A stretch of DNA of 64,000 nt from positions 15,575 through 79,574 of the forward strand of contig RFQR01000001.1 of NCBI GenBank assembly GCA_009924895.1, read 5' to 3'. A program made the position numbers and the translations under genes. Positions within the stretch are counted from its first letter, which is position 1. The number at the start of each line of letters is the position of its first letter. This document shows positions 1-57,466 of the stretch, one piece after another. This stretch comes from a bacterium. GTDB lineage: Bacteria; Patescibacteriota; Minisyncoccia; Phycocordibacterales; UBA2100. The notes under the pieces were generated by a model. The model saw only the letters and a program-made list of their open reading frames with translations. It was not told the DNA's origin and did not search any database.

Positions 1-602
1 AGCGTCCGGTCGACCCCTTTTGTACTTAGATTGATCTGTCCATTCTCGATCAATATATCGTCGAGAAACAAGGTGATCTCACGGTTCACCGGCGACCAAT
101 AGTCTCCACTCTCTGGAACAACAAAGTAATTGCCGTACAGCCCTAATTCTTGTTGGAGGTCTTCGCGGACATGCGGATGATACCAGTACACGCCGGCGTC
201 GGGGAATTTCAGCTTATACGAGAATGCCTCGCCCGGCCCCATTTCTTCTTGTGTTGTCTGTGAACCGTCGAACGCATTGTCCATGCGCACACCATGCGAA
301 TGGAGTAGTGTTTTCATGCCCGTGTCGTTAGTGAAATTTATTGTCACCTCTGCGCCCTGCGCGATCTTGATTAGCGGTCCCGGAATTGAACCGTTATAGG
401 CAAGCATGGTATATGTCTTTCCACCAATTTCTTTTTTAACTGGAGAAGCTACGAGATCATAGGTATCGCCGTTTTTGAGTTCAACAATTTTGCTTTGCGC
501 GACAGGCGGTATCTCTGGCCCTGGCTTAACCGAGGCGATAGTTACAATAGCGGCAAGAACCACCACGATCGCGCCCCCGATGTATAGTCGTTTATTATTC
601 AT
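1..602 (-). CDS. multicopper oxidase, N-terminal part (gene continues beyond the window start)
   Basis: Manual minus-strand translation from ATG at 600-602 gives MNNKRLYIGGAIVVVLAAIVTIASV... (signal/TM), then a cupredoxin domain with an HSHG copper-ligand motif and ...GVYWYHPH.... It is absent from the ORF track because it is truncated by the window edge. Confidence 0.75.
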   Translation of the reverse strand, partial: MNNKRLYIGGAIVVVLAAIVTIASVKPGPEIPPVAQSKIVELKNGDTYDLVASPVKKEIGGKTYTMLAYNGSIPGPLIKIAQGAEVTINFTNDTGMKTLLHSHGVRMDNAFDGSQTTQEEMGPGEAFSYKLKFPDAGVYWYHPHVREDLQQELGLYGNYFVVPESGDYWSPVNREITLFLDDILIENGQINLSTKGVDRT

Positions 603-630
603 GGTGTTTTATCTTAACCGCAGTAGTCTA

Positions 631-849
631 TTAAATAATCTCGCCGCTTTTCTCAAGTATCATGTGGTGAATAGTCGCCACTTGAGTCCATATAGCTATG
701 AGGACTAGAATGGCGCTGCAAGCGAGTGCATCGACTTTTGTAATGCTGAAGGTGGAGTCCGCGCTCCCGAATACAGCAATGAGGAAAACGGAGACTCCTA
801 TAAAACCCGTGATTACACTCGCAACATGCATTAATTTTGATAGTTTCAT
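631..849 (-). CDS. small 2-TM membrane protein, function unknown
   Basis: 72-aa ORF in the same orientation and tightly packed within the copper operon. It has two hydrophobic helices. Confidence 0.35.
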   Translation of the reverse strand: MKLSKLMHVASVITGFIGVSVFLIAVFGSADSTFSITKVDALACSAILVLIAIWTQVATIHHMILEKSGEII

Positions 850-862
850 ATATTTTTTAGTT

Positions 863-1261
863 TTAGCTAACCTTAATTTGAAAGTTATACATTCCCATTC
901 CGCACACCCCCTGCACTTTGTCTCCAGATTTTGGAGTGCCTAAGTCAATTATTTCTTCACCTGTTGGTTGCAGTATTTTTTGGAAACCAACAGAGCGGAT
1001 TACAAGTGACGCCGTACAATCATATGTATCATCTGTCTTCACAACCAACTTGGTGGGTAATCCACCCTTGATTTGAGTAATGCGCGGGGAGTAGCCACCT
1101 TTTGCGGTAATAGTCACGTACTGTACGCCATCTCTAATTTCTACATTCTGCGATTGCGCAACTTCACCATTAGGGGATGCCGACCTATCAGAAATAAAAT
1201 ATAGAGTCCCTCCAATGAGGGCAACGCTGATGATAATGGATATGATTGTGTTTTTTTGCAT
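863..1261 (-). CDS. putative cupredoxin-like copper-binding protein
   Basis: N-terminal TM anchor followed by a beta-rich domain ending in a Cys/Met motif QGVCGMGMYNFQIKV. It lies inside the copper-resistance operon. Confidence 0.4.
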   Translation of the reverse strand: MQKNTIISIIISVALIGGTLYFISDRSASPNGEVAQSQNVEIRDGVQYVTITAKGGYSPRITQIKGGLPTKLVVKTDDTYDCTASLVIRSVGFQKILQPTGEEIIDLGTPKSGDKVQGVCGMGMYNFQIKVS

Positions 1262-1277
1262 AGATTAACTAATAAGA

Positions 1278-2285
1278 TTATATGTTAAATAAAGGGTCGA
1301 TAATGCCGAGTCCCGCTAGTCCCGCTAGAAGTGCAAAGGCTCCAAGACCAATCACTAAAACCCCAGCAGATTTAAAGAAAAGCGAAGCGTGCTTTGATTG
1401 AGCGAATGATGCAGAACCGAACGATAGTAATGCGAGCATTGGCAGTGTACCTAATGCAAAGGCTGTCATAATCAGAAATCCTGATAGAAATGAGCCACTT
1501 GAAAGTGCCGCAACCTGCATCGCTTGAGTAAATCCGCACGGCAGAAAAAATGTGCCGACACCAACCAAGAATGGGGCTATTGTCTTGTGCTCCACCTTGC
1601 GGAAGAAACTGAAAACTCCCGAAGGTAGAGCAATCATATTTTTCTCAAAAACTCCCACCAGGTTAAGCCCAAGTACAATCATCACGATTGACGCAATAAT
1701 TCCGAGTATTGCGGTAACGGTAAAACTTATACCAATTGCACTACCGATAGCACCGAGAACACCGCCAAGTATTGCAAAACTGATTAGTCTTCCACCGTGG
1801 AAAAGCATCATGGGTTTGACGTCGCTTATTTTGTCCTGAGACACTGTTGCAGAAAGAGAAAGGACAAGTCCTCCAACAACCGCAAGACAACTTGAGACAG
1901 ATGCTACCAAACCAATGATAAAACTTGTAACTGGCGTTACGGTTCCTCCTAAACCAAAGTTCAATACCCCTGACTTTTGAATAAAGAAGAAAAGAGCGAG
2001 AAAGGCAAGTCCGATAGGAAGTGCTTGAAAGAATACTCCATTATCCTTTTTCTCTTTCGTTTTTCGCTCTACAGAAAGAGTGTACCCATTGTGCTTAATT
2101 TTCTCAGTTAATATTTCCGCAAGTTTATGTTGACTCTCATCAAGAGTAGTATCGATAGTTACTGTTTCTTGCTTCAGATCAACACTTATACGATCGATAC
2201 CAATCTGCTCACTTAGAGTATCCTCGATGAAGATTTTACATGAAGGACAATGGGTACCTGAAACGTGGAATGTGTAGGTTTTCAT
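1278..2285 (-). CDS. heavy-metal-associated (HMA) domain fused to a CcdA/DsbD-like multi-TM permease
   Basis: The N-terminus carries GTHCPSCK, a variant of the GMxCxxC HMA motif. The C-terminus is polytopic with FLPCGF and SSC motifs typical of DsbD_2/CcdA-type thiol-disulfide transporters. It overlaps the upstream gene by 4 bp. Confidence 0.55.
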   Translation of the reverse strand: MKTYTFHVSGTHCPSCKIFIEDTLSEQIGIDRISVDLKQETVTIDTTLDESQHKLAEILTEKIKHNGYTLSVERKTKEKKDNGVFFQALPIGLAFLALFFFIQKSGVLNFGLGGTVTPVTSFIIGLVASVSSCLAVVGGLVLSLSATVSQDKISDVKPMMLFHGGRLISFAILGGVLGAIGSAIGISFTVTAILGIIASIVMIVLGLNLVGVFEKNMIALPSGVFSFFRKVEHKTIAPFLVGVGTFFLPCGFTQAMQVAALSSGSFLSGFLIMTAFALGTLPMLALLSFGSASFAQSKHASLFFKSAGVLVIGLGAFALLAGLAGLGIIDPLFNI

Positions 2286-2689
2286 AAGTCTTTTGTTATT
2301 GTTCTAAGACGACCCCATTCTTTCCAGAAAAAATAAGCAATAACCGGAAATGCGAGAGATGTTATGAGCCCTGGATAATATCCGCCAGCAAGAACTGCTT
2401 TGACGATGTGGTGAAGCTCAAAGATATACACAACTCCTATAACCCCCAACAAATAAAATCGCCACCGTTCGCCTAATAGAAGCACTAGCGAGACAAGGAG
2501 CAGCAACCAGAACATGAGTTGGAAGGTTACAAACATGACACCGTGCAGTGAGAGCTGTGCGAACGGCTGAAAAAGATATGCATCCCATGCGTCCATTTCA
2601 TAAAACCCCGTGAATATCTCTTCAATCCCGTGCGCAATAAAAAACGGAATTGAGAGCGCAAATATGTATTTTATTTTTTTCGATATCAT
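2282..2689 (-). CDS. HXXEE-domain membrane protein
   Basis: HGIEE motif at the N-terminus. It has 4 TM segments and the length typical of the HXXEE family. Confidence 0.55.
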   Translation of the reverse strand: MISKKIKYIFALSIPFFIAHGIEEIFTGFYEMDAWDAYLFQPFAQLSLHGVMFVTFQLMFWLLLLVSLVLLLGERWRFYLLGVIGVVYIFELHHIVKAVLAGGYYPGLITSLAFPVIAYFFWKEWGRLRTITKDL

Positions 2690-2691
2690 AG

Positions 2692-5004
2692 TTATATTTT
2701 CATTGCCTTAAGACGAAGCGCATTCCCGACCACTGAAACGCTTGAAAGTGCCATTGCGAGTCCGGCGAATACAGGAGATAAGAGCCAACCGAATATCGGA
2801 TAGAAGAGTCCTGCAGCGAGCGGAATCCCCACAATGTTGTAGACGAATGCAAAGAATAGATTTTGCTTTATTCCTCGCATAGTCATCTTTGAGAGTTTGA
2901 TAGCCTTAACAAGCTTCGAGATATCTCCATGGAGGAGTGTGATACCCGCCGACTCAATCGCAACATCAGTGCCTGTCGCCATTGCGATACCCACATCTGC
3001 CTGTGCAAGTGCTGGTGCATCATTTACACCATCACCTGCCATTGCGACTATCTTGCCTTGCGATTGCAGTTCTTTAATTTTCTTTAGTTTGTCTTCGGGC
3101 AGTACCTGAGCGACTACCTCGTCGATGCCGACCTGCTGTGCGATATAAGCGGCAGTATTTTTGTCATCCCCCGTCAGCATGACGGTTCTGATGCCGAGCT
3201 TGTGCAGATTCCGTACGGCTTCAATCGCTTCAGGCTTAATCGCGTCTGAAACGAGAACTGCCGCGAGTATCCTTTCTTTAGTTGCAAGAATGACGGGCGT
3301 CCTCCCGTTTTTCGTTTCTGTTTCAAGCGAGGCGGCATCAAAAGACAGCTGCAAGTCTCTTGCTAGAGCAAGATTTCCTGCAAAATACTCAACACCATCT
3401 ATTACTCCTCTAAGTCCTTTGCCTTTGATGATCTCGAAGCGTTGCGCGCTTTGTATCGTCAGTTTCTTCTCTTTCGCATACGCCACAATAGCGTGAGCAA
3501 TGGGGTGCTCTGATTTGTTTTCGAGCGTCGCGAGAATTGAAGCTATTTCGTCCTCTTTCATATCTGTATAGTTTTGGATTGAGATCAATTCCGGCTTTCC
3601 TTTGGTGATCGTCCCGGTCTTATCAACTACGACAACATTCACTTTGTGGAGCTTTTCGAGCGTCGCGGCATCTTTAATGAGAATGCCTTCTTTTGCGCCC
3701 TTACCTACACCCACAATGATTGCGACTGGGGTGGCGAGCCCAAGAGCACATGGGCACGCAATCACGAGTATCCCAACGAATGAGACAAGCCCGAATGACA
3801 AGGCCTGTGCAAAGCCGAAGTATCCAGTCCCAAGAACAAGCCATGCGCCAAGCGTGACCACCGCAAGAACGAGAACCGTCGGAACAAAAACACTTGAAAT
3901 CTTGTCTGCAAGCGCTTGGATGGGAGCTCTACTCCCTTGGGCTTCTTCCACCATCTTAACGATTTGAGAGAGCATAGTCTCAGAGCCAACTTTTGTCGCC
4001 CTGAACGTGAATGCGCCAGTTGTGTTGATGGTTCCCGCAACGACAGTGTCTCCAGTATTTTTCTCAATAGGAATCGGCTCACCACTTATCATGGCTTCAT
4101 CTACAAAGGACGACCCTTCCGTAAGCACCCCATCGACAGGAATTTTCCCGGCTGGCTTTACTAGAATCAGATCGCCATGCACCACTTGATTCACTGGAAT
4201 TTCTTGCTCTTTTCCGTCACGAATAACTAAAGCTGTTTTTGCTTGAAGGTTGAGAAGCTTTTCAATAGCATCTCCCGTTTTTATCTTTGATCGTGCCTCT
4301 AAATATTTACCGAACGTAATGAAAGCAATAACCACTATCGTCACATCGTAGTAGGTGTACTCAACATTGATAAATTGGCGTAGTGGCTCCTCAAGTGCGG
4401 TGACCGCGATGCTGTAAACATACGCGGCGGTCGTACCGATGCCAATGAGTGTATCCATATTTGCTTTCCCGTAGCGGAAGAAACGATACATGCCCATGAG
4501 ATAGGGCTTACCAACGACAAAGAGCACGTAGGTCGCCATGAGTGGCAGGAGATGATGGAAAAATTCAGACCAAACGTACGGCACGGCCGGGAGTACCTCA
4601 AATTGGGCGAGCATATCCCAACCCATCACGAAAATACTGAAAATAGTGAGTGGAATCACGGAGAGTACCTTTGTCTTCATTTCCTCAACTTCTTTCAGTT
4701 TTACTTCCTTTGATTGCTTCAATCCGAGATGAGCGGCATGTTCATCAGGTGACATGCCCATTTCTGCTGCGGACATTGTGGAATGATCTACAGTGGGAAG
4801 GATGAGAGAGTAACCGAGCGTCTCAATTTTCTTTGAGAGCTCATGGGGATTCGTTTTTTGCTCATCAAAAGATACTTTTGCGGTTTCAGTACCATAGTTC
4901 ACTTCAGCTGAATGAACGCCATCCGTTTTCTTAAAGGTCTTTTCGATCATTGAGGAACATGAAGCGCAGTGCATTCCTTTTACTCTGTACGTTTGTGTGT
5001 GCAT
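2692..5004 (-). CDS. copA: copper-translocating P1B-type ATPase
   Basis: N-terminal HMA motif GMHCASC. Membrane CPC motif IACPCALGLATP. Phosphorylation site VVVDKTGTIT. Hinge motif GDGVNDAPAL. Length 770 aa. Confidence 0.95.
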   Translation of the reverse strand: MHTQTYRVKGMHCASCSSMIEKTFKKTDGVHSAEVNYGTETAKVSFDEQKTNPHELSKKIETLGYSLILPTVDHSTMSAAEMGMSPDEHAAHLGLKQSKEVKLKEVEEMKTKVLSVIPLTIFSIFVMGWDMLAQFEVLPAVPYVWSEFFHHLLPLMATYVLFVVGKPYLMGMYRFFRYGKANMDTLIGIGTTAAYVYSIAVTALEEPLRQFINVEYTYYDVTIVVIAFITFGKYLEARSKIKTGDAIEKLLNLQAKTALVIRDGKEQEIPVNQVVHGDLILVKPAGKIPVDGVLTEGSSFVDEAMISGEPIPIEKNTGDTVVAGTINTTGAFTFRATKVGSETMLSQIVKMVEEAQGSRAPIQALADKISSVFVPTVLVLAVVTLGAWLVLGTGYFGFAQALSFGLVSFVGILVIACPCALGLATPVAIIVGVGKGAKEGILIKDAATLEKLHKVNVVVVDKTGTITKGKPELISIQNYTDMKEDEIASILATLENKSEHPIAHAIVAYAKEKKLTIQSAQRFEIIKGKGLRGVIDGVEYFAGNLALARDLQLSFDAASLETETKNGRTPVILATKERILAAVLVSDAIKPEAIEAVRNLHKLGIRTVMLTGDDKNTAAYIAQQVGIDEVVAQVLPEDKLKKIKELQSQGKIVAMAGDGVNDAPALAQADVGIAMATGTDVAIESAGITLLHGDISKLVKAIKLSKMTMRGIKQNLFFAFVYNIVGIPLAAGLFYPIFGWLLSPVFAGLAMALSSVSVVGNALRLKAMKI

Positions 5005-5005
5005 A

Positions 5006-5281
5006 CTATTTTCTTTTCAGCTTATACACCTTAAGAATTTCTTCCTTTGCCTTACTGGTCTGCCCGGATTTTATTTGATTCAAAATGCAGCCGCCGAGAT
5101 GGTTTTCGAGCAGAAGATCCTCAACGTTTGAAAGACCCTGCTTGACAGCTGAGGTTTGCGTAATTACATCGATGCAATAAGTATCGTTTTCGACCATCTT
5201 TTGAAGCCCGCGCACCTGACCCTCAAGAAGCTTGAGTCGTCGAATGATTCGACCCTTACTTTTATCTTCCATGTATTTCAT
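5006..5281 (-). CDS. csoR: CsoR-family copper-sensing transcriptional repressor
   Basis: 91 aa with a Cys...His-x3-Cys ligand pattern (DTYCID ... ENHLGGC), which matches CsoR rather than RcnR. It sits immediately upstream of copA and is co-oriented with it. Confidence 0.85.
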   Translation of the reverse strand: MKYMEDKSKGRIIRRLKLLEGQVRGLQKMVENDTYCIDVITQTSAVKQGLSNVEDLLLENHLGGCILNQIKSGQTSKAKEEILKVYKLKRK

Positions 5282-5292
5282 ATATAGATACT

Positions 5293-5310
5293 ATACCCCC
5301 TAGGGGGTAT
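5293..5310. promoter_or_regulatory. candidate CsoR operator: perfect 18-bp palindrome ATACCCCCTAGGGGGTAT overlapping a putative -10 (TATAGT)
   Basis: Read directly from the sequence. It lies 12 bp upstream of the csoR start on the minus strand. Known CsoR operators are GC-tract pseudo-palindromes of this kind. Confidence 0.6.
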
Positions 5311-5380
5311 ACGTGTAAAGTACTCGCTTCCGAGTTACCAACACTCGGGCATTTGGGGCGCTCTGGACTCCTAGGGAGGG

Positions 5381-6733
5381 TTGCGTCATTCCTTGTGTTG
5401 TATGGAAAAAACAACAACATCAAGGACTAACCTCGGCGTGAGGCAGGTTGAGCCAGCTCCTGTAATTAAATACTGCCTCTACGCAAGAAAGTCGACTGAA
5501 AGCGAGGAACGACAAATCCTCTCTATCGATAGTCAGATTAAAGAGATGATTCAACTCGCAGAACGCGAGGGTCTTGAGATAGTCGAAATCAAGCGAGAGT
5601 CACACTCCGCAAAAGAGACAGGACAAAGACCTGTCTTCAACGAAATTATCGAAGAGATACGGCAAGGAAAATTCACAGGAATACTGACGTGGGCACCAGA
5701 TCGCATCAGCAGAAATGCTGGAGACCTCGGAAAGATAGTGGACCTGATGGATGCAAAGCTTCTCGTCGAGATTCGCACATTCGGACAAAGATTCACCAAT
5801 AGCCCAAGTGAGAAATTCCTGTTGATGATTCTCGGAAGTCAGGCGAAGCTTGAGAACGATAACCGAGGTATCAACGTGAAGCGTGGACTGCGAACTAGAG
5901 TGGAGATGGGGCTATGGCCTGGAGTGGCACCGCTTGGATATCTGAATCAAAAACTGATGGACAAGAAGTGTCAGATTGCCGTTGATACAGCACGTGCTCC
6001 AATAGTTAAGAAAATGTTCGAAAAAGTTGCATACGAACATTACTCGGGCAGAAAGATTTACAACTGGCTGAAGTTTGAACTGAACTTTCATACGCGCGGA
6101 AACAAACCACTGACGCTAAGTGGTGTGTATCGCATGCTCGACAATCCGTTCTACTACGGACCATTCGAGTATCCGAGAGAAAGTGGCAACTGGTATCAGG
6201 GCAAACACACGCCGCTTATCACTCAAGAATTATTTGAGAAAGCACAAGCACAACTGAAGCGTGACCAGATAGTGAGGGAGAACAAGGAGTTCGCCTTCAC
6301 CAAATTATTCACCTGCGGATACTGCCAGAGCGGTATATCAGCCGAAGAAAAGTGGAAACCACTCAAAGATGGAACATCAGCACACTACATTTACTACGGA
6401 TGCAGTCGAGCGAGAGACAGAAACTGCAAGAACAAATACATACGTGAGGAAGAACTGATAGACGAGCTACTGAAAATAATTGACGTGGTAAACATAAACG
6501 AGCTGGGCATGAGGCAAAAGCTGGAAGATGAGATACGACGATTCAATAAACTACAAAAGATAGTAAATGGGAGAAGTGGACACGGATTGGTGGAAGAAGA
6601 TGATGTGAACATCAGACAATACGCAAAATACCTTCTCAAAGAAGGAAGTACATCAGACAAGAGAGAACTGCTCGCGAACCTACGAAGCAGACTGAACTAC
6701 AAGGACAAAAAGATAACGATGATGGAGGAGTAG
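5381..6733 (+). CDS. large serine recombinase (resolvase/invertase N-domain, recombinase domain and zinc ribbon)
   Basis: N-terminal YARKSTESEERQ...SIDSQ catalytic-serine motif. C-terminal Cys-rich CGYCQSG...YYGCSRARDRNCKNK zinc ribbon. Length 450 aa. Confidence 0.9.
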   Translation: MRHSLCCMEKTTTSRTNLGVRQVEPAPVIKYCLYARKSTESEERQILSIDSQIKEMIQLAEREGLEIVEIKRESHSAKETGQRPVFNEIIEEIRQGKFTGILTWAPDRISRNAGDLGKIVDLMDAKLLVEIRTFGQRFTNSPSEKFLLMILGSQAKLENDNRGINVKRGLRTRVEMGLWPGVAPLGYLNQKLMDKKCQIAVDTARAPIVKKMFEKVAYEHYSGRKIYNWLKFELNFHTRGNKPLTLSGVYRMLDNPFYYGPFEYPRESGNWYQGKHTPLITQELFEKAQAQLKRDQIVRENKEFAFTKLFTCGYCQSGISAEEKWKPLKDGTSAHYIYYGCSRARDRNCKNKYIREEELIDELLKIIDVVNINELGMRQKLEDEIRRFNKLQKIVNGRSGHGLVEEDDVNIRQYAKYLLKEGSTSDKRELLANLRSRLNYKDKKITMMEE

Positions 6734-6740
6734 AGCAAAC

Positions 6741-6777
6741 AAAAAAGAACGACCGAAATCGTTCTTTTTTGTTACAA
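6741..6777 (+). terminator. rho-independent terminator after the recombinase
   Basis: AAGAACGACCGAAATCGTTCTTTTTTG: an 8-bp stem followed by a T6 run. Confidence 0.6.
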
Positions 6778-6842
6778 CTTTTTGGGCACTCGGGTCACAG
6801 CTTGCTCGCTATCACTCGGGTCATGCCGATAAAAAGTTGTCC

Positions 6843-6930
6843 TGGCGGAGAGGGAGGGATTCGAACCCTCGATGCCTTGCGACATGGCGCTTTTCGAGAG
6901 CGCTCGTTTCAACCACTCACGCACCTCTCC
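6843..6930 (-). tRNA. tRNA-Ser (anticodon CGA), CCA encoded
   Basis: Manual fold of the minus-strand sequence GGAGAGGTGCGTGAGTGGTTGAAACGAGCGCTCTCGAAAAGCGC...GAGGGTTCGAATCCCTCCCTCTCCGCCA. It has a 3-bp D-stem, the anticodon loop CUCGAAA, a long variable arm and G73. Confidence 0.85.
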
Positions 6931-6976
6931 GTAGGCAGAAGAGTACTTTATTTTGTCTTCTTTTCAAAACAGGCAC

Positions 6977-7567
6977 TCAGCGCCTCTTTCTGAGATTGAG
7001 CGAAGCGAGTGTCAGTGCAGAGATTGCCTGCGAATCAGTAATAGCACCCTTCAGAATCATGTCACTTGTTTTTGAAAGTGGTAGAATCTTCATTTCTGTA
7101 ATCCCATCGGCTTCCTGTTTGTTTTTTCCAGTCTGGGTGAGTCCTGTTGCAAGGAATATGTGGGTAACTTCACTCAAAAGTCCGTTTGCAGATTGAATTG
7201 TTCCGAGCTTTTTCCACTTTTTTGCGCTTAGCCCTGTCTCTTCCCAGAGCTCGCGTTTAGCAGCTTGCAAGGGATTTTCTCCAGTATCAACGCTCCCGCC
7301 AGGCACTTCGAGCGACATTCTGTCAGTAGCATATCGGTGCACTCGCACCAACGTAACGCGCCGTTGTTTGTCGAGCGCAATAATGACCACACACGGAGGT
7401 GTATCAACAACAAAATACTCGCCCTCGGTTTGCTCTGGGGTGGTCACTCTGTCGTGTCGCACGGTGTACCACGGATTTTTATGTACCACTTTCGCCGAAA
7501 GTTGCTTCCACTGCCTTTCATACAATGAATATACCCGAGTATATGCTGCTCGAGAAGCAAGGAACAC
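6977..7567 (-). CDS. NUDIX hydrolase
   Basis: Nudix box GGSVDTGENPLQAAKRELWEETGL. Confidence 0.85.
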   Translation of the reverse strand: MFLASRAAYTRVYSLYERQWKQLSAKVVHKNPWYTVRHDRVTTPEQTEGEYFVVDTPPCVVIIALDKQRRVTLVRVHRYATDRMSLEVPGGSVDTGENPLQAAKRELWEETGLSAKKWKKLGTIQSANGLLSEVTHIFLATGLTQTGKNKQEADGITEMKILPLSKTSDMILKGAITDSQAISALTLASLNLRKRR

Positions 7568-7632
7568 GGTGTGTTACACTCGCTCTCACGCAGTGTGGGT
7601 GAGTCCTGCATGCTGTAGGATAGATTCAAAAT

Positions 7633-7719
7633 GGAGAGATGGGTGAGTGGTTTAAACCAGCGGTTTACTAAACCGTCGCTCATTAACTTGAGCCGCGAGT
7701 TCGAATCTCGCTCTCTCCG
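7633..7719 (+). tRNA. type II tRNA, Ser-like (G73, long variable arm). The anticodon loop UUACUAA gives ACU in the U33 register and CUA in the alternative register.
   Basis: Manual fold: acceptor GGAGAGA/TCTCTCC, D-arm GGT..ACC, anticodon stem GCGGT/ACCGT, variable arm GCTCA-TTAACT-TGAGC, T-arm GCGAG TTCGAAT CTCGC. No CCA is encoded. Confidence 0.7.
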
Positions 7720-7873
7720 CAGTTTGAACGCAGTGAAAACTGCGGAGAGAAAAAACGTGCCTGCGCACGTTTTGTGCGGATTCGAAAAGCGGAGTCATGT
7801 TTTTGTAGAAACAAAAACGGACGAGCTAGGGTCGTGAAATTTTTCTTGTGACGACAAGAAAAATATTCCTGAC

Positions 7874-7893
7874 CGAATCTCACTCTCTCCGCA
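7874..7893 (+). repeat. 19/20-nt direct repeat of the tRNA 3' end (the copy of 7702-7721)
   Basis: CGAATCTCACTCTCTCCGCA matches CGAATCTCGCTCTCTCCGCA of the tRNA T-arm/acceptor. Both copies are followed by CAGTT. Confidence 0.5.
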
Positions 7894-8014
7894 CAGTTAG
7901 ATGATGTGAGTTTTGGAACATCACATTGAAGGGAGAACGCATTGAAAACGTTAGCTTTTCTGCGTTCAGCGTGCAGTTCTGAAGGTCACGGGATATTTTC
8001 TGGCTTTATGCACC

Positions 8015-9124
8015 CTACTGATACTGAATAAACGACGGTGCTGGAGTAAGCTCGAGCACTTCTTTTGGAGTCATGAGGCGTGTTGATGGTGGCTTCATGT
8101 CATTCTTGTAGAAAATTTTAAACCCGGTGAACTGCACAGGCTCGTCCATAATAACGCGCTCGTAGGTACCGACTTTTCGTGCGCCATAGCCCCACCCATC
8201 CATATCCATTACTATCTGCACTTCAGGCAATGGTTTGATGTTGCGGTATCCGGTGACCATCTCCTCGGTAAAGCGGTGAACGATAAGAATTTTTGGCGGC
8301 AGATTATGTTTCTGAACTAATCCTTGCAAATACTGTGCAGCGTAGTTGATGTCGGCGGAACTAAATGTGCCAATTTCATCTCCCGGTGCTCCTTTGTGTT
8401 TCATTGAGAATTCAGGGTCGAGAGCAAGGTGGACCTGTGGCATCGACAAGTATTTTTCGAGCGAAGGTAAGTCTCGTTGGAGAGTGCTAAATCCTATCTG
8501 CATTTCTAATATGACAATCCCGTTTACCTGCCGCGCCATCTCAAGCGCTTTGTCGATTTGGTTGTCAGGCATTTGAATACGATATTTTCCATCTTTGCCA
8601 GGCCTGTCTTGGGCAGCGACGGCAATATAGTCAATCGCGTGAATAACAGGCGTGGACGGGTCGGCCTCTGACCACTCTGCCGCAGCTTTTTGTAACTTAG
8701 CAAGCGTACTTGATGCATCTGCTTCGCCTAAAATGCCCATACCTTTCGAATAAAAGTTGCCGTAATACGCGACAATACGGTTAAAAGGGAGTAGCGCTCC
8801 CGCATTTGGATAGGTAGAGCGTGTTGGCCATTGTCGTATGGTGCTGCTCGCAAGAGAGCTCTCAGTAAAAGAAGAAAGGGTACGATCACCAGGGGTGGGT
8901 GCGAGAACTAGTTTTGAAATAGTCGTTGTCGATACGTGCGCAAGCGCGAGCATTTTGCGGTCATAGGCAAGCTTATCGAGCTGGGGAACTTGTTTGGGGG
9001 CGCTTTCAGGCGTTTTGTGAGCACAGTACAAAACTTGACGAGACAGAGTCAGGTAAACGAGCGCAGTAAGCAGGATAGTACCTGCTGTAAAAAAAGTGAG
9101 TAGAGAGATGTGCCGTAGTGACAT
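8015..9124 (-). CDS. membrane-anchored secreted protein, function unknown
   Basis: 369-aa ORF with an N-terminal TM anchor. I recognise no signature. Confidence 0.45.
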   Translation of the reverse strand: MSLRHISLLTFFTAGTILLTALVYLTLSRQVLYCAHKTPESAPKQVPQLDKLAYDRKMLALAHVSTTTISKLVLAPTPGDRTLSSFTESSLASSTIRQWPTRSTYPNAGALLPFNRIVAYYGNFYSKGMGILGEADASSTLAKLQKAAAEWSEADPSTPVIHAIDYIAVAAQDRPGKDGKYRIQMPDNQIDKALEMARQVNGIVILEMQIGFSTLQRDLPSLEKYLSMPQVHLALDPEFSMKHKGAPGDEIGTFSSADINYAAQYLQGLVQKHNLPPKILIVHRFTEEMVTGYRNIKPLPEVQIVMDMDGWGYGARKVGTYERVIMDEPVQFTGFKIFYKNDMKPPSTRLMTPKEVLELTPAPSFIQYQ

Positions 9125-9242
9125 ACGCGCCCCCTAGTATACCCTTAGGCTCGCCGAAGAGTTAGTCCATATCAGCGTGTACTGACACCAGGGTAACGCT
9201 CCCCCTCGATGTGATTGATGTCTTTCATACTATACTGACACT

Positions 9243-10661
9243 ATGAACTCGCCTTATGACGAGCCGACCACTCTGGTCATATTTGGCGCAACGGGGGACC
9301 TCTCTTCGAGAAAAATATTTCCTTCGCTTTTTTACTTGTATCAACAGGGGCGTTTGCCAGAGCGTGCGGCAATCATCGGGTATTCGCGCCGAGAGCTCCC
9401 CAACGAGGATTTTCGTACCATGGTGAAAGAGTCCCTCGTAGGTAAGATGAATATGCCAGAAAATATCGATGCGTTTCTCTCACTCTTCTCATACCATCGT
9501 GGCACGTTTGACGAAGCGACAGCATTTGAGTCACTGGCACAGACCATTGAAAGCAAGGAAAAAGCCTGGGGACAGTGCGGAAACAAGCTTTTCTATCTCT
9601 CAGTGCCACCCGAATCGTATCCGCCTATTTTTCAAAATCTTGCACATACGAAATTAAATATTCCTTGTGGTGGCAAGCTGGGGTGGAGTCGAGTGCTCAT
9701 CGAGAAGCCGTTTGGTTCTGACGGAAAAACTGCCCACGAACTTCAAACGCTTCTGAGCACCTATTTTACCGAAGACCAACTCTACCGTATCGACCACTAT
9801 CTCTTTAAGGAAATAGTGCAAGGTATAGAGCATTTTCGTTTCTCAAACAATCTGTTTGAGAATCGATGGGGGAACGACACAGTGGCTCAAATAGACATTC
9901 GACTTCTTGAATCAATCGGCGTGGAATCGCGTGGAGCATTTTATGACAAAGTCGGTGCCTTTCGTGATGTGGGACAAAATCATCTTCTCGCCATGCTCGC
10001 TGCGATTACTGCGCAGTATCCAGCAGGAAGTGGTGTTGAAGAAATACAGGGCGAGCGTGCAAAGGCACTGAGCGCGCTTGCGCCGTGGACCGATGAGAGT
10101 ATCGCACAATCCACTTATCGAGCACAGTACCAAGGGTATCAATCAATAAAGGGCGTCGAACCGGGTTCAACGACAGAAACATATGTTGCACTCAAAACTG
10201 AATTACAGCTTCCGCAATGGAATGGTGTTCCAATCTTCCTCGAGGCGGGAAAGCGCACAGGAGAACCGCTCAAAGAAATGGTGATAACGCTGCGTCATCC
10301 CAAAAAATGTCTCTTGTGTACGGTAGGTTCACATGGAGCAAATACAATTACCTTTCGTCTCGAGCCAAACGATGAGATTGTCATAAAGTTTTGGACAAAA
10401 AAGCCCGGATTTGAACGTGTGCTCGAAGAACGCGCATTCTCATTCTTTTTGTACGAAAAAGAAACGAAAGTCCAGTATGTTGAAGAGTATTCAAAGATAC
10501 TGAATGCAGCGATGGTGGGGGACCGTGCGCTCTTTGTCGGCCCTGATGAAATTAAAGCAATGTGGAAGTTTACTGATTTGGTGGTGGAGGCGTGGCAACG
10601 CAACGTGGTGCCACTCGATACATATCCCCCCGATACGCGACCGCTCCCCACGTTTAGATAG
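9243..10661 (+). CDS. zwf: glucose-6-phosphate 1-dehydrogenase
   Basis: N-terminal LVIFGATGDLSSRK NADP-binding motif. Active-site motif RIDHYLFKE. Confidence 0.9.
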   Translation: MNSPYDEPTTLVIFGATGDLSSRKIFPSLFYLYQQGRLPERAAIIGYSRRELPNEDFRTMVKESLVGKMNMPENIDAFLSLFSYHRGTFDEATAFESLAQTIESKEKAWGQCGNKLFYLSVPPESYPPIFQNLAHTKLNIPCGGKLGWSRVLIEKPFGSDGKTAHELQTLLSTYFTEDQLYRIDHYLFKEIVQGIEHFRFSNNLFENRWGNDTVAQIDIRLLESIGVESRGAFYDKVGAFRDVGQNHLLAMLAAITAQYPAGSGVEEIQGERAKALSALAPWTDESIAQSTYRAQYQGYQSIKGVEPGSTTETYVALKTELQLPQWNGVPIFLEAGKRTGEPLKEMVITLRHPKKCLLCTVGSHGANTITFRLEPNDEIVIKFWTKKPGFERVLEERAFSFFLYEKETKVQYVEEYSKILNAAMVGDRALFVGPDEIKAMWKFTDLVVEAWQRNVVPLDTYPPDTRPLPTFR

Positions 10662-10671
10662 AACATACGTA

Positions 10672-10702
10672 CAAAAACCACTCCGCAAAGGAGTGGTTTT
10701 TG
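10672..10702. terminator. bidirectional terminator between convergent genes
   Basis: AAAAACCACTCCGCAAAGGAGTGGTTTTTG: a 7-bp stem with an A-run on one side and a T-run on the other. Confidence 0.65.
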
Positions 10703-10712
10703 TATATATTTT

Positions 10713-11006
10713 TTACTTCTGTCCGTGCATTTTCTTTACTTCTGAAATCCCGTCTTTAACACCTTTTGCAACTTGCTTACTAAAAACTGAGAGTTCATCC
10801 GCAAGTTTTTTCATGCCGAGTTTGGCAAGGCGCAATTCTTCTTTTGCCTTTGCTTGCGCAGGCTTACTATCGTTCCACGCATCAGCAGCTTTCTTCTTGG
10901 TCTTTACTGCCGCGTCTTTTGCAGCCACTTTGAGTGCGTCTGCTTTTTTTGCGGTGTTGATAATTGCGTCGCGAACGAGTGCGGCGATGTTCTGCTGGTC
11001 TGCCAT
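10713..11006 (-). CDS. Lys/Ala-rich small helical protein, unknown function
   Basis: The ORF track extends it to 11048. Starting at MADQQNIAALV... seems more plausible. The composition is low-complexity, basic and alpha-helical. Confidence 0.35.
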   Translation of the reverse strand: MADQQNIAALVRDAIINTAKKADALKVAAKDAAVKTKKKAADAWNDSKPAQAKAKEELRLAKLGMKKLADELSVFSKQVAKGVKDGISEVKKMHGQK

Positions 11007-11067
11007 AGAAATATGATTATTTGATATGAGGAAAGTATAGCAGGTCATTGTACGCTACAATAATTAG

Positions 11068-11490
11068 ATGTTTCCCAACATCAAAACCTTCTCTGCCTCT
11101 ACTCGCACCGCACAAGAGGCGGCGGATCAAATAGGCTGCGCGCTTGGCGCTATCGGTAAGTCACTTATTTTTCGAAGTGGGGACGATATGATTTTAATAA
11201 TTACGAGTGGTACGAATCGCGTTGATACGGAGCGTGTGGGCAAAGAACTTGGGGTGACACTTGGCAAAGCAGATGCTGATTTTGTGAAAGCAAAAACTGG
11301 CTTTTCTATCGGCGGTGTCGCGCCATGGGGATATGAGCGCCCCGCGTACGTAGTTATTGATGCTGATTTAGAGCAGTACCCCGAAATATGGGCCGCCGCA
11401 GGAACGCCACACTCAGTTTTTCCCACAACCTTCGGAGAATTACAAGAAAAGACTAGGGGTGTTGTTATGAAAGTCGCTTCGGGTGCATAA
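11068..11490 (+). CDS. YbaK/ProX-family aminoacyl-tRNA deacylase
   Basis: FSIGGVAPWG core motif and 140-aa length typical of YbaK-like trans-editing domains. Confidence 0.65.
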   Translation: MFPNIKTFSASTRTAQEAADQIGCALGAIGKSLIFRSGDDMILIITSGTNRVDTERVGKELGVTLGKADADFVKAKTGFSIGGVAPWGYERPAYVVIDADLEQYPEIWAAAGTPHSVFPTTFGELQEKTRGVVMKVASGA

Positions 11491-11508
11491 GTACGGTACA
11501 CTCGCGGT

Positions 11509-12285
11509 ATGAGCATTTCTTTGCTTCTTATCGCGATTGCAGAGGGCCTCACCGAGTTTCTGCCAGTTTCTTCAACAGCACACCTGATTTTGATAGGGAA
11601 AATTGCCACGGTTAATCTAACAGACCCGTACGTCAAGTTTTATATTCTGTTTATTCAGTTGGGAGCGCTCGTTGCCGGAGTGATGCTGTTTAGCAAACGC
11701 ATCCTTACCGACAAAAGTTTGATCGTGAATATTAGTGCGAGTTTTCTCCCGACCGCGGTGATTGGTTTTACGCTCTACAAGCTATTTAAGCACCTACTTG
11801 AAGGTAATCTCATTCTCATGGCAGTGGCACTCGTACTTGGCGGCGTACTCCTTATCTCTATTGAAAAGCTCATTGCACAGCGTGCAGCAATTGAGGACTA
11901 CGGCCGTGACACTATCACTATCAAGGATGCTTTTTTGATCGGGTGTGCACAAGCATTTGCAATGGTGCCGGGCGTGTCTCGTTCGGGAGCGACAATTATT
12001 GCAGGAATTTTTATGAATATCCGCAAGGCAGTCATTGTCGAATATACGTTTTTGCTCGCACTTCCGACGCTTGGGGCGGCGGTGTTGTATGACGGATATA
12101 AATCGCTCGACATGCTCTCGAATATCGCATCATGGAATGAGCTTCTGCTCGGGTTTCTGATTGCTGCTATTACTGCGTTCGTAACCCTCATAGTGCTGCG
12201 CAAATATCTTCCCACTATTTCCCTTGCGTGGTTTGGGTGGTATCGCATCATTCTCGCTACGCTAATTCTTATTACGCTTTGGTAG
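11509..12285 (+). CDS. uppP: undecaprenyl-diphosphatase
   Basis: GLTEFLPVSSTAHLIL N-terminal signature. 8-TM protein. Confidence 0.9.
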   Translation: MSISLLLIAIAEGLTEFLPVSSTAHLILIGKIATVNLTDPYVKFYILFIQLGALVAGVMLFSKRILTDKSLIVNISASFLPTAVIGFTLYKLFKHLLEGNLILMAVALVLGGVLLISIEKLIAQRAAIEDYGRDTITIKDAFLIGCAQAFAMVPGVSRSGATIIAGIFMNIRKAVIVEYTFLLALPTLGAAVLYDGYKSLDMLSNIASWNELLLGFLIAAITAFVTLIVLRKYLPTISLAWFGWYRIILATLILITLW

Positions 12286-12289
12286 CTGT

Positions 12290-13987
12290 ATGCTTCAATC
12301 GGAGGCGCTTTCGGTATTAAAAACAGGAGTCAACGTTTTTCTCACCGGTGAACCAGGGAGTGGCAAGACACATACGATCAATGCATATGTCGAGTATGCG
12401 CGCTCCTGTGGCATCGAGCCTTCGATTACCGCTTCGACAGGGATTGCTGCAACGCATGTTGGTGGCATGACTATTCATGCGTGGAGTGGCATTGGGGTAC
12501 GCAAGGATTTATCTGCATACGACCTTGACGCGATTGCGGGCAATAAAAATGTCCACAGCCGGGTCCGACATGCGCAGATACTCATTATTGATGAAATTTC
12601 TATGCTTTCCGCACGGACACTTGATATGGTAGATACGGTCTGCAGGGAAGTACGCGGGAATCAGAGCCCGTTTGGCGGCCTTCAAGTCATTCTGGTAGGA
12701 GATTTTTTCCAATTGCCACCGGTCTCGCGCGCAGAAGCGGACGACGAAGGACAGATACGGATAGCTGAAGAAAGACGAGAAAAGTTTGCCTACGAATCGC
12801 GTGCGTGGGCAGACCTTAATCCGCTGGTCTGCTATTTGTCAGAGCAGCATCGCCAAGTAGATGGTCCGTTTCTTGAAATCCTCTCAACGCTTCGTCGTGC
12901 GACTTTCGGCGAAGATCAGAAAAAGATTTTGCGCACACGCTATGCGCGCGTAGCGCCAGAGGGAGTCACGCAATTGTACGCGCACAATGCGAATGTGGAC
13001 GTGATAAACATGAAAGAACTCGAGAAGCTGTCGGGAAAGGTGGTTGAATTTGGTATGCACGGGAAAGGCCCCGAGAAGGTAGTTAACTCTTTGAGGCGCA
13101 GTTGTTTGTCGCCCGAAAAGCTGCTTCTCAAAGTCGGGGCGCGCGTCATGTTTACTAAAAACGATCTCGCCCCACAAAAATATGTAAATGGAACTCTCGG
13201 TACTGTGACAGGCTTTGCCGATAGTGGTTTTCCTGTGGTAGAGACTCGAGCGGGGACGGTGATTGCAGAACCAGATGAATGGCACGTGGAAGATGGAGGG
13301 CGCATCATAGCGCGGATTATGCAGGTACCCCTTCGTCTCGCATGGGCAATAACGGTACATAAAAGTCAGGGAATGTCACTCGATGCAGTACATATGGACC
13401 TCTCGAGCACGTTTGAATACGGACAAGGATATGTGGCGCTTTCGCGTGCGCGCACGCTCGCAGGTCTTTCGATTGCCGGACTCAATCAACGTGCAACCGA
13501 AGTCCATCCTGATGTGTTGCAAGAAGATGAGAAGTTTCGCGAAAAGTCAGAAAAAGTACAAAAGCATTTTCAAAGCGTGTCCGTGGCAGAAATAGAAACT
13601 CTGCACGCAAATTTTATTCGCGCTTGTGGTGGCAAGTTCGGTGCGGGAAGGAATGTGAAAGAAAAGCAGCAGCCCGGTTCCTCGCTCGAAATCACTCTCA
13701 AATTAATTAAAGCAGGGAATGGTATTGCAGAAATCGCCAAAGAGCGAGAACTGAAAGTAGCTACCATTATTGACCATCTAGAACAGCTCAAAGATTTGAG
13801 AAGGCTTGATATGGCTCGTGATTGTGCGCACCTTACTAAACCAAAACACCTCGAAAAGATGCAGGAAGCATTGCTCGCTACTGCCGATGAATCTGGAAAC
13901 ATGCCACTCTCGCCCGCCCGTGCATTTTTAGGTGAACGCTATTCATTTGACGACCTTCGTCTCGCCAGACTTTTTTTTAAGGAGTAG
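12290..13987 (+). CDS. PIF1/RecD-family helicase with a C-terminal HTH domain
   Basis: Walker A GEPGSGKTH. IIDEISML. VILVGDFFQLPPV. C-terminal helix-turn-helix tail. Confidence 0.85.
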   Translation: MLQSEALSVLKTGVNVFLTGEPGSGKTHTINAYVEYARSCGIEPSITASTGIAATHVGGMTIHAWSGIGVRKDLSAYDLDAIAGNKNVHSRVRHAQILIIDEISMLSARTLDMVDTVCREVRGNQSPFGGLQVILVGDFFQLPPVSRAEADDEGQIRIAEERREKFAYESRAWADLNPLVCYLSEQHRQVDGPFLEILSTLRRATFGEDQKKILRTRYARVAPEGVTQLYAHNANVDVINMKELEKLSGKVVEFGMHGKGPEKVVNSLRRSCLSPEKLLLKVGARVMFTKNDLAPQKYVNGTLGTVTGFADSGFPVVETRAGTVIAEPDEWHVEDGGRIIARIMQVPLRLAWAITVHKSQGMSLDAVHMDLSSTFEYGQGYVALSRARTLAGLSIAGLNQRATEVHPDVLQEDEKFREKSEKVQKHFQSVSVAEIETLHANFIRACGGKFGAGRNVKEKQQPGSSLEITLKLIKAGNGIAEIAKERELKVATIIDHLEQLKDLRRLDMARDCAHLTKPKHLEKMQEALLATADESGNMPLSPARAFLGERYSFDDLRLARLFFKE

Positions 13988-14028
13988 GCAGTCTAGCTTT
14001 ATCGAGTCCCTCAATAGTGAATACACTA

Positions 14029-14066
14029 TGTACCATAATATGTCCGACCGGACATCACATGGTACA
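14029..14066. repeat. 38-bp nested palindrome, copy 1 (TGTACCAT-aat-ATGTCCG-AC-CGGACAT-cac-ATGGTACA)
   Basis: Read from the sequence. It ends 9 bp upstream of the paaX-like start codon. Confidence 0.7.
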
Positions 14067-14074
14067 CTAAGAAT

Positions 14075-14662
14075 ATGGAAGGTTTAGAAAAAAGAACAGC
14101 TAAGAAAGTGAGGCGTAGAAAGATTCAAGATGGAATAATGGCGGTACTGTTGGGGATGACTGCGATAGGACTTATGTTTACTGCACCAAATGCACTCCGA
14201 TTGCTCAAAAAGTTTGATCCGGATCTGGGGCGCAAACGAAACCCCGGAACGCGCGTTCGTCAGGCGATGAAAAGACTAGAAGGGCGAGGGTTGGTTGTAG
14301 GAATAGAAGAAAACGGTACGACTCGCTTTGTTTTGACCGAGAAGGGAAAGAGGTATGCCGAGCGGCTTGCTGAAGCAGAGTCACTGCATATCCCTATACC
14401 AAAAAGGTGGGATGGAAGGTGGCGTGTGGTGATTTTCGACATCTGGGAACGCCGAAGGGAAGTAAGAAGACAATTTAGAAACATGTTGAAGAAGATAGGA
14501 TTTGTTCTGGTGCAAGATAGTGTTTGGGTGTACCCCTACGATTGCGAAGAGGTTATTGCATTTATTCGCACGCATTTGCGACTTGGAAAGGGTGCTCTGT
14601 ATATGATTGCCGATGGAATAGAAGGAGACAAGAAGTTACGTGAACATTTTAACCTTTCATAG
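14075..14662 (+). CDS. PaaX-family transcriptional regulator (short form) with a strongly Cas2-like central domain
   Basis: The N-terminus resembles the PaaX wHTH (RLEGRGLVVGIEENGTTRFVLTEKGKR versus E. coli PaaX RLNKEGWLDVSRIGRRSFYSLSDKGLR). WDGRWRVVIFDIWERRREVRRQFRNMLKKIGFVLVQDSVWVYP matches PaaX WDGKWLLLL... and the Cas2 consensus VLVxYDIxxxRRRxKVxKxLxxYGxRVQxSVFEC. Confidence 0.6.
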   Translation: MEGLEKRTAKKVRRRKIQDGIMAVLLGMTAIGLMFTAPNALRLLKKFDPDLGRKRNPGTRVRQAMKRLEGRGLVVGIEENGTTRFVLTEKGKRYAERLAEAESLHIPIPKRWDGRWRVVIFDIWERRREVRRQFRNMLKKIGFVLVQDSVWVYPYDCEEVIAFIRTHLRLGKGALYMIADGIEGDKKLREHFNLS

Positions 14663-14716
14663 GTTATTTGTGAGAGGATTTATCATACTTTTCGTATTTT
14701 GCTCTATTGTTCTAAC

Positions 14717-14754
14717 TGTACCATAGCATGTCCGACCGGACATACTATGGTACA
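14717..14754. repeat. 38-bp nested palindrome, copy 2 (TGTACCAT-agc-ATGTCCG-AC-CGGACAT-act-ATGGTACA)
   Basis: Arms are identical to copy 1 and only the 3-nt spacers differ. It lies between the paaX-like stop and the HD gene start. Confidence 0.7.
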
Positions 14755-14798
14755 TAGTTTAGGTGTGTGAGGAATGAAGGGTATGCTATATTCATGAG

Positions 14799-17347: not shown

Positions 17348-17385
17348 CGCAAGGTACTGTAGCAAACTCAAAATAAAGTATTGTA

Positions 17386-17414
17386 TTGACAATATTCAGT
17401 ATACACATTATAAT
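17386..17414 (+). promoter_or_regulatory. consensus sigma70-type promoter (TTGACA-17-TATAAT). The -10 region is palindromic (ATTATAAT), so it may also act on the minus strand for queA.
   Basis: Read from the sequence. It is followed at +40 by GAGAGGAAC-N6-ATG of the 17454 ORF. Confidence 0.4.

Positions 17415-37856: not shown

Positions 37857-37899
<43 letters not shown>

Positions 37900-41326: not shown

Positions 41327-41359
<33 letters not shown>

Positions 41360-56012: not shown

Positions 56013-57466
<1,454 letters not shown>

Follow-up and report, generated by a model that had tools for sequence, protein, structure and literature searches.

Introduction

In Staphylococcus, SCCmec and other staphylococcal cassette chromosome (SCC) elements use large serine recombinases (LSRs), either CcrAB or CcrC, to place a resistance island right at the 3' end of rlmH without inactivating this gene. 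Elements that lack the ccr recombinases pile up in tandem at the same site, with att-like junctions between them. Temperate phages with serine integrases integrate into protein-coding genes or intergenic sites. To our knowledge, few mobile elements have been described in small-genome bacteria of the candidate-phyla-radiation type. Here, we analysed a stretch of 64,000 nucleotides (the window) from a patescibacterial genome (GenBank assembly GCA_009924895.1, contig RFQR01000001.1, positions 15,575 to 79,574; GTDB lineage Patescibacteriota, Minisyncoccia, Phycocordibacterales, UBA2100), in which an LSR gene (5402-6733, plus strand) is situated between a copper-resistance gene cluster and the 3' end of tRNA-Ser(CGA) (6843-6930, minus strand, predicted by ARAGORN and Rfam). 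A reading of the sequence alone had taken this arrangement for a possible integrated copper-resistance island. We conclude, with a probability of about 0.88, that the LSR is the integrase of a 22.3-kb island at the 3' terminus of tRNA-Ser(CGA), and that the copper cluster is cargo of this island.

The locus resembles SCC in its LSR, in the position of a resistance island at the 3' end of an intact housekeeping gene, and in the tandem recombinase-less units that were found in its relatives. It differs from SCC in its target, which is tRNA-Ser of any isoacceptor instead of rlmH, in its Patescibacteria host, in the terminase genes of its backbone, and in att arms of ~60 and ~105 nt, one of which is tRNA-like. 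The recombinase is also a single LSR of a distant lineage, for which the nearest solved structure in the PDB is the SPbeta integrase (E = 7e-12). The recombinase-less tandem units bear a looser likeness to integron arrays. With the serine-integrase phages phiC31, Bxb1, SPbeta and A118 the island shares a three-domain enzyme, a short identical core and an integrase gene beside the att site, but its gene products showed no detectable family of capsid, portal, tail or lysis proteins. It also resembles tRNA islands with tyrosine integrases and phage-inducible chromosomal islands (PICIs), which likewise insert at tRNA 3' ends, carry the integrase at one edge, transport accessory cargo such as metal resistance and defence genes, and vary in presence among strains. 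In contrast to these, the enzyme belongs to the serine class, a 4-bp core takes the place of a duplicated tRNA segment of 15-50 nt, and the crossover lies at tRNA positions 71-74, where the element need not rebuild the tRNA. The island fills a niche, the 3' end of a tRNA gene, in which tyrosine integrases are the classical occupants.

Results and discussion

An empty allele delimits the island

A copy of the occupied locus was found on a 388-kb contig (ENA ERZ27247967, contig k141_1011569; locus L116), which matches window positions 1-17567 at 100% over 17,567 nt, belongs to the same genome and reaches 3 kb upstream of the window start. The empty allele came from a conspecific strain (Logan SRR31802060, contig 29942), in which locus L115 represents the right flank and locus L123 the left flank. 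From window position 17567 down to 6845 (10.7 kb), L115 is 99.64% identical to the window, after which the two sequences diverge totally, and L115 contains neither the conserved right-end motif of the island nor the LSR and the csoR-copA cluster. The distal boundary was found by using the HMA-MauE host gene of L115, the first gene beyond the tRNA, as a probe. This led to L123 in the empty strain and to L124 on the same 388-kb contig as the window sequence, and these two are 100% identical over 11,702 nt before they diverge. Comparison of L115/L123 with L116/L124 demonstrated that an insertion placed precisely at the 3' end of the tRNA is missing from a close relative.

The overlap between the two breakpoints measures exactly four bases, GCGG (window 6845-6848), corresponding to C71-C72-G73-C74 of the tRNA and common to attB, attL and attR. 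In the orientation of the window, attB reads CGGTCTCGTTATTTTT-GCGG-AGAGGGAGGGATTCGAACCC, attL reads CGGTCTCGTTATTTTT-GCGG-TGCAGGTGGGTTAAGTGCCCACCGCTATCAACC and attR reads CCGATAAAAAGTTGTCCTG-GCGG-AGAGGGAGGGATTCGAACCC; the attB of tRNA-Ser(CGA) can also be written as CGTTATTTTT-GCGG-AGAGGGAGGG. The empty sequence, TTATTTTT-GCGG-AGAGGGAGGG, is the left side of attL joined exactly to the right side of attR. The crossover dinucleotide lies within GCGG or beside it. In record coordinates, the island extends from 231,864 to 254,141 (22,278 bp). The tRNA-Ser(CGA) was predicted to be intact in both alleles, at a length of 86 nt without the island and 88 nt with it, the occupied form receiving C75-A76 and a new 3' trailer from the island. 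Contigs of five other samples end at the branch point, each with one allele or the other, which suggests that both alleles are present among these samples.

The central proposal of the sequence-only reading, an integrated copper island at tRNA-Ser, was thereby supported by a strain without the LSR and the copper genes, whose flanks are 99.6-100% identical. The empty site expected in a relative exists (L115/L123), and so does the other island boundary upstream of the window, located on L124 at 15.4 kb beyond window position 1. The direct repeat of the tRNA-Ser 3' end that was also expected did not turn up as a long repeat. A search of the window for repeats of the tRNA 3' end (27 nt, ≤3 mismatches) returned nothing beyond the tRNA itself, and the junctions have only the 4-bp GCGG in common, not a flanking duplication of 15-50 nt. 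The sequence-only reading would have counted a missing repeat against the island, which was too strict, because a serine integrase should leave a very short core and no long direct repeats.

The recombinase gene and its flanking sequences

The LSR has 443 aa when translated from the ATG at 5402, as in the public gene call on the identical contig, and its open reading frame (ORF) opens at 5381. Matches to the Pfam families Resolvase (PF00239, 1.7e-20), Recombinase (PF07508, 2.1e-15) and Zn_ribbon_recom (PF13408, 9.8e-09) all passed the cut-offs, in agreement with the complete three-domain enzyme that had been read from the letters, and the protein matched the PHROG annotation 'integrase' at 1.4e-63. 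Judged by this domain content, it is a bona fide large serine recombinase. The catalytic-domain match covers positions 3-143 of the PF00239 profile and places the motif YARKS(31)T where the profile leads one to expect it; Ser31 is accordingly aligned as the putative nucleophile. The LSR stop at 6733 lies 109 nt from the 3' end of tRNA-Ser(CGA), close to the ~110 bp given earlier. The copper operon on the other side was also correctly described as running off the window, since it extends on the minus strand from CsoR through a partial multicopper oxidase.

A leader of conserved sequence precedes the LSR gene (5333-5401, plus strand; AGTTACCAAC..ACTCGGG..CGCTCTGGACTCC..TTGCGTCAT). It was kept in 15/15 loci inspected, while the sequence farther upstream varies, and homology between the window and locus L001, which encodes an LSR 95% identical to that of the window, starts at 5333. 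The leader moves together with the LSR gene, and the island does not end there. In the promoter scan, the LSR had no sigma-70-like promoter. Downstream of the gene, the terminator scan indicated a hairpin (6738-6773, plus strand) with a 15-pair stem and with A and T runs on both sides. This terminator-like structure is followed by the P arm of attR, the conserved right end of the island (6786-6844, plus strand), which consists of two ACTCGGGTCA repeats and then CCGATAAAAAGTTGTCCTG, and which borders directly on the GCGG core.

A family of LSRs associated with tRNA-Ser genes

A protein search with the LSR yielded at least 8000 matches (protein clusters). The best 120 of these were 81-95% identical and carried the depositor labels Niyogibacteria, Levybacteria, Yanofskybacteria and 'Patescibacteria group'. 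In a scan of species-representative genomes, loci encoding the LSR family were identified in at least 545 species genomes, and 80 loci were fetched. The first tRNA downstream of the LSR was a minus-strand tRNA-Ser in 59/80 loci, with the anticodons GCT (22 loci), TGA (17), GGA (8), CGA (6) and ACT (6). Among the remaining loci, one of the 80 had a tRNA-Asp and 20/80 had no tRNA, 12 of these with <3 kb of downstream sequence. A tRNA-Ser upstream of the LSR was found in 0/80 loci. With 59 loci showing the same arrangement and none the opposite one, the geometry of LSR and tRNA-Ser is not due to chance. The distance between the two genes ranged from 113 to 8485 nt and was within 130 nt in 14 loci.

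LSRs with 97% identity are found beside different isoacceptors, tRNA-Ser(CGA) in the window and tRNA-Ser(GCT) in L002, which indicates that the tRNA is the target and not part of the cargo. A gene-cluster map of the 80 loci revealed that, on the right of the tRNA, loci with the same isoacceptor share a gene order, and this side is therefore taken as host chromosome. To the left of the LSR, genes for a ParB-nuclease/N6_N4 methylase, a TerS-like helix-turn-helix (HTH) protein and a large terminase recur whatever the isoacceptor, as do type I and type III restriction-modification systems, reverse transcriptase, LexA-like repressors and defence cargo. Cargo was also found between the LSR and the conserved right-end motif.

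The target isoacceptors include tRNA-Ser(ACT), with A at position 34, a base that is unusual there in bacteria outside tRNA-Arg(ACG). The window has a tRNA-Ser(ACT) of its own at 7633-7720 (plus strand), and this tRNA recurs in L018, L024, L044, L047, L061, L077, L089 and L130, often beside tRNA-Ser(GCT). Some loci contain two LSR genes: L007 has a second LSR beside tRNA-Asn (1-1408), and L025, L031 and L075 have convergent copies. More distant LSR relatives in IMG/VR (45-60% identity) adjoin tRNA-Gln, Asn, Glu, Asp or Trp; at L099, L105-L107, L110 and L111 (45-55% identity), tRNA-Glu, Trp, Gln or Asn is found instead of tRNA-Ser. The wider LSR clade may thus be tRNA-targeting, with a specificity that differs by subfamily.

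Attachment arms and proposed mechanism

The right-end motif of the family reads GGGTC, ~17 nt, GGGTC, 5 nt, CGATA(A/C)(A/T)AA(A/G)TTGTC and 1-3 nt. This P-arm motif abuts the tRNA-Ser 3' end in 57/59 loci, regardless of the distance to the LSR, and is present neither at other tRNA-Ser genes of the same loci nor in the empty allele. The opposite end of the elements is marked by a P' arm, GCGG-TGTA..CG.GTTAAGTACCCA, ~20 nt, TAAGGGTATTYTAGCA, ~30 nt, AGGCATGTGGGTCGGGG, which was found in LSR orientation at 25 places in the fetched loci. These represent left ends and give element sizes of 3-22 kb; bounded relatives of ~3-13.5 kb include L008, L022, L023, L033, L044, L045, L046, L060, L064 and L071. 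The core GCGG is present in 63 attR sites and in 24/25 attL sites of the family.

Past the core, the P' arm and the B' half of attB, which is contributed by the tRNA, match in register at G2, G8, G10, T12, G15, A17 and CCC18-20. In the window element, the first 5 nt of P' are followed by a 5-bp stem, a 7-nt loop (TTAAGTG) and the second strand of the 5-bp stem, a structure like that of a T-arm. The agreement in register and the T-arm-like stem-loop together indicate that this attP arm resembles the tRNA half-site. The conserved arms measure ~62 nt and ~105 nt and contain direct repeats of a GGGTC type, namely ACTCGGGTCA twice in the P arm (6786-6826) and CTGGGTCGG in the P' arm (L124 11771-11795). 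A motif of the same type, ACTCGGG..CGCTCTGGACTCC, is conserved throughout the family in the LSR leader. Sites of serine integrases are usually 40-50 bp, and the arms of this family are longer than such an enzyme should need.

Repeats of another kind are found near three different tRNA-Ser genes. Some ~20 nt of the tRNA 3' end recur as a direct repeat at 125-185 nt downstream of the gene, and an inverted T-arm/acceptor copy separates the two. The sites are window 7702-7721/7874-7893, L115 10881-10910 (at the empty tRNA-Ser(CGA) allele) and L130 11660-11820. Older integrations may have left these repeats as scars, or they may be degenerate tRNA copies.

From the biochemistry of LSRs, the following mechanism can be proposed. 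LSR dimers would bind attP on a circular form of the element, in which the P arm would be ..ACTCGGGTCA-N16-ACTCGGGTCATGCCGATAAAAAGTTGTCCTG and the P' arm TGCAGGTGGGTTAAGTGCCCACC.., the latter resembling a tRNA acceptor/T-arm in register. Dimers would also bind attB, made up of the 3' trailer and the acceptor/T-arm of tRNA-Ser (the B' half). The strands would then be cut and exchanged within or beside the shared GCGG at tRNA positions 71-74, which would leave the tRNA body intact and replace the trailer alone. The predicted attP junction is AAAAAGTTGTCCTG-GCGG-TGCAGGTGGGTTAAG, also given as AAAAAGTTGTCCTG-GCGG-TGCAGGTGGGTTAAGTGCCCACC. The insertion with its boundaries and gene content, its polymorphism among strains and the target preference of the family were observed directly, while catalysis by the LSR, a circular intermediate and mobility at the present day are inferred.

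Gene content of the island and alternative explanations

From attL onwards, the left part of the island encodes an E2-like protein, a ThsB-like TIR protein (PDC-M50B), PDC-M50A and PDC-S16/DUF2188, which are defence-like genes (L124 11852-13807). These are followed by a LexA-like repressor, an HTH_11 protein, a ParB/methylase (424 aa) and a methylase (254 aa), then by a TerS-like protein (135 aa), TerL (499 aa), DUF4352 and HTH_3, and then by an RND pump (1040 aa), a membrane fusion protein (MFP, 566 aa) and two small ORFs. The right part contains, in this order, the multicopper oxidase, a 72-aa ORF, a cupredoxin, HMA-DsbD, HXXEE, CopA, CsoR, the LSR, attR and the tRNA-Ser. Copper resistance makes up about half of the island, and the element is phage-related, with terminase genes. 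The TerS-like protein and TerL are the only phage-like products; capsid, portal, tail and lysis families were absent from the precomputed Pfam lists and PHROG matches of the 24 island gene products, among which several small ORFs were matchless. The set of genes that defines a complete temperate prophage is accordingly missing, and the island looks phage-derived or satellite-like.

An LSR, a LexA-like repressor, a TerS-like protein and TerL, with no structural family detected, is the gene content of a PICI-like phage satellite. Such an element would travel in the capsids of a helper phage, use its own small and large terminase for packaging, and need the LSR for integration and excision only. 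The ParB/methylase, the orientation of the LexA-like repressor, divergent from the packaging operon, the size of 22 kb and the listing of relatives as viral contigs in IMG/VR are in line with this lifestyle. It is harder to reconcile with the several bounded relatives in which TerL is missing (L046, L071), no helper phage is known, and genes for replication or for redirecting capsids were not recognised. We consider a satellite of this kind rather unlikely, though a serious candidate; it is compatible with an island integrated by its LSR and not exclusive of it.

Several observations weigh against the conclusion that the LSR is the integrase of a mobile island with copper cargo. Recombination itself was not observed. 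This island was not encountered in a circular or attP form, and 0/29 complete metagenome contigs with an attP-like junction were circular. The island products include no primase or replication-protein family, and no recombination directionality factor was identified in the island. In the right flank, the strain with the island and the one without it are 0.36% apart, which indicates presence or absence at the strain level instead of an excision caught in one clone. Between L124 and L116, 3.4 kb of the island at record positions 240,837-244,273 were unread; the RND and MFP genes, which run into the gap from both sides, have the length needed to fill it. A comparison of GC content, as suggested in the sequence-only reading, gave a divided answer. 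The island part of the window has a GC content of 0.451 against 0.483 ± 0.008 in equal-sized stretches of the remaining window, none of which is as low, whereas the left part of the island (0.494) is close to the host flank (0.503). The contrast between the copper part (0.451-0.459) and the left part suggests that the metal block was probably a separate acquisition by the element.

That no circular form was found and that the right flanks differ could also mean that the island is a decayed and immobile prophage remnant, with the LSR and the att arms as relics and the polymorphism as one old insertion sorted among strains. The presence of terminase genes without detectable structural genes would fit such a history, and TerL is shortened in some relatives, for example in L015. 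Decay is, on the other hand, difficult to combine with an LSR ORF that is intact in the window and in all 80 loci, at 70-97% aa identity and across many named Patescibacteria lineages, with two att arms that are conserved at the family level, and with an empty site that is exact to the base. The bounded relatives of 3-13 kb are also without capsid, portal and tail gene clusters, suggesting a native architecture. We regard this explanation as improbable.

That the LSR is a minimal self-contained element (5333-6844) beside the tRNA and the copper operon an unrelated piece of ordinary chromosome would agree with the abrupt end of conservation at 5333 in many loci, with the same 1.4-kb LSR block being joined differently to the copper module in L001, and with the LSR being so near the tRNA in 14 loci, but it is extremely unlikely, since the copper genes are likewise missing from the empty allele, whose match to the occupied locus returns no nearer than 15.4 kb beyond the left end of the window, and since the conserved P' arm is found at that distal junction and not at 5333. 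Position 5333 had been tried as the left boundary of such an LSR-only element, where conservation ends and L001 is rearranged, and was ruled out by the empty site and the distal P' arm.

The copper cluster as recurrent cargo

The copper cluster of the integrated island is encoded on the minus strand. It is led by a CsoR-family copper-sensing repressor (5006-5281; Pfam Trns_repr_metal, 2.1e-23), with a promoter-like site of the operon at 5290-5319 (minus strand, 10/12 matches in the promoter scan). This site is overlapped by a perfect 20-bp palindrome, TATACCCCCTAGGGGGTATA, at 5292-5311, which is kept beside csoR in L001 and which, from its likeness to known CsoR operators, is the probable CsoR operator. 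The next gene encodes a CopA-type P1B heavy-metal ATPase (2692-5004; Pfam HMA, E1-E2_ATPase and Hydrolase), for which the longest ORF has 770 aa and the public gene call on L116 has 752 aa, 18 aa fewer. It is followed by an HXXEE-motif membrane protein (2282-2689; Pfam HXXEE, 5.9e-08), a membrane protein in which HMA is fused to DsbD_2 (1278-2285; Pfam DsbD_2 6.4e-31, HMA 5.3e-11) and a cupredoxin-like protein (863-1261; Pfam Cupredoxin_1 6.3e-07, above the cut-off), which is 89% identical to the L001 copy. A hydrophobic 72-aa ORF (631-849), taken from the ORF list and gene-called on L116, L120 and L121, had no family match. The cluster ends in the window with the N-terminal part of a multicopper oxidase (1-603, from the ORF reading), which runs off the window start; the protein on the identical contig L116 has 513 aa with Cu-oxidase, Cu-oxidase_2 and Cu-oxidase_3 domains.

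As expected for a CsoR-regulated copper efflux operon, the cluster has a repressor, a palindrome at the promoter, and a P1B ATPase that includes a metal-binding domain. The arrangement is that of known CsoR-CopA operons, in which CsoR and a P1B ATPase with an HMA domain are accompanied by a GC-tract palindrome overlapping the promoter, and it goes beyond their core with the cupredoxin, the multicopper oxidase and the RND/MFP pair. The copper genes themselves are ordinary; what sets them apart is a block that moves between two cargo slots of the element family. In L001, L040, L042, L029 and L052, the LSR has csoR as a neighbour, sometimes accompanied by copA. In L001, the block from csoR-copA to the cupredoxin is 71-81% identical in DNA to that of the window and is located directly after the LSR stop codon, whereas the copper block of the window is located before the LSR leader. 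L130, from the same metagenome-assembled genome as L001, has the same left cargo and LSR and then continues straight into the P arm and tRNA-Ser(ACT). The arrangements of L001, the window and L130 thus indicate that the copper block behaves as a module able to take either cargo slot. Inversion and circular permutation were considered as links between the arrangements of the window and L001, and no simple scheme was found to fit.

The host chromosome to the left of the island is also metal-related, with HMA-MauE, DUF5134, a DIT1/PvcA-type isocyanide synthase and a CopC-domain protein (L115 11747-15741 / L124 6681-10675).

Tandem units without a recombinase

In front of some P' arms there is a P arm where host DNA would otherwise be, forming P-GCGG-P' junctions, and a metagenome scan for this junction retrieved 43 contigs (L131-L173). 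Over all oriented loci, which comprise genome, viral and metagenome contigs and are in part redundant, 31 LSR-less units of 0.55-4 kb (30 of them 0.55-2.5 kb) were bounded by P' and P arms. Several such units can be arranged in tandem beside tRNA-Ser genes, as in the arrays of L047 (2-1969), L077 (14444-15734), L143 (434-4133), L159 and L168. Most have one dominant ORF, and the genes carried include those for a nucleotidyltransferase, a polyprenyl synthetase, a GNAT acetyltransferase and a HAD hydrolase. The longest ORF was co-oriented with the tRNA in 28/31 units, so that they could be expressed by transcription continuing from the tRNA promoter. The likeness of P' to the 3' half of the tRNA would also enable attL to serve as a secondary attB, and this would account for the accretion of units. 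The island of the window has one arm of each type, P and P', which makes it a single unit and not itself a tandem array.

Accordingly, we tentatively suggest, at somewhat less than even odds, that the LSR and its long att arms constitute a gene-capture platform at the tRNA-Ser genes of Patescibacteria, similar to SCC or integrons, in which the copper island would be an autonomous, LSR-bearing member. In the tandem units there is a hint of a so far undescribed cassette-accretion system.

Relation to previous work and implications

In the largest survey of LSRs, targets were grouped by protein-coding gene clusters, and the word tRNA is absent from its main text. A description of a tRNA-Ser-targeting LSR family was not found in the searchable literature, as represented by titles and abstract openings on LSRs and tRNA genes. 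Equally, literature searches on prophages and serine recombinases in Patescibacteria or the candidate phyla radiation brought up nothing relevant, with an inovirus study as the only paper retrieved.

The locus provides a base-exact and naturally polymorphic case of horizontally acquired metal resistance and defence genes in a bacterium of the candidate-phyla-radiation type. It also defines a very large and highly conserved LSR family whose natural target is the tRNA-Ser 3' terminus. With a tRNA gene end as one natural half-site, a variable trailer as the other and an attP arm of tRNA-like form, the family is a suitable case for studying how serine integrases read their sites. It is also a possible source of integrases with a target that is present in every cell.

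Other features of the window

Rfam searches of the window returned rRNA and tRNA matches only. To the right of the island, a NUDIX protein (6977-7567) is present unchanged on several public contigs. The 23S rRNA match at 37267-41478 spans 4212 nt against a model of 2925 positions, implying an insertion of ~1.3 kb. The rRNA genes do not form a standard operon: a tRNA-Cys is situated between the 23S and 5S (41847-41952) rRNA genes, and the 16S rRNA gene (56010-57467) lies 14.5 kb downstream of both.

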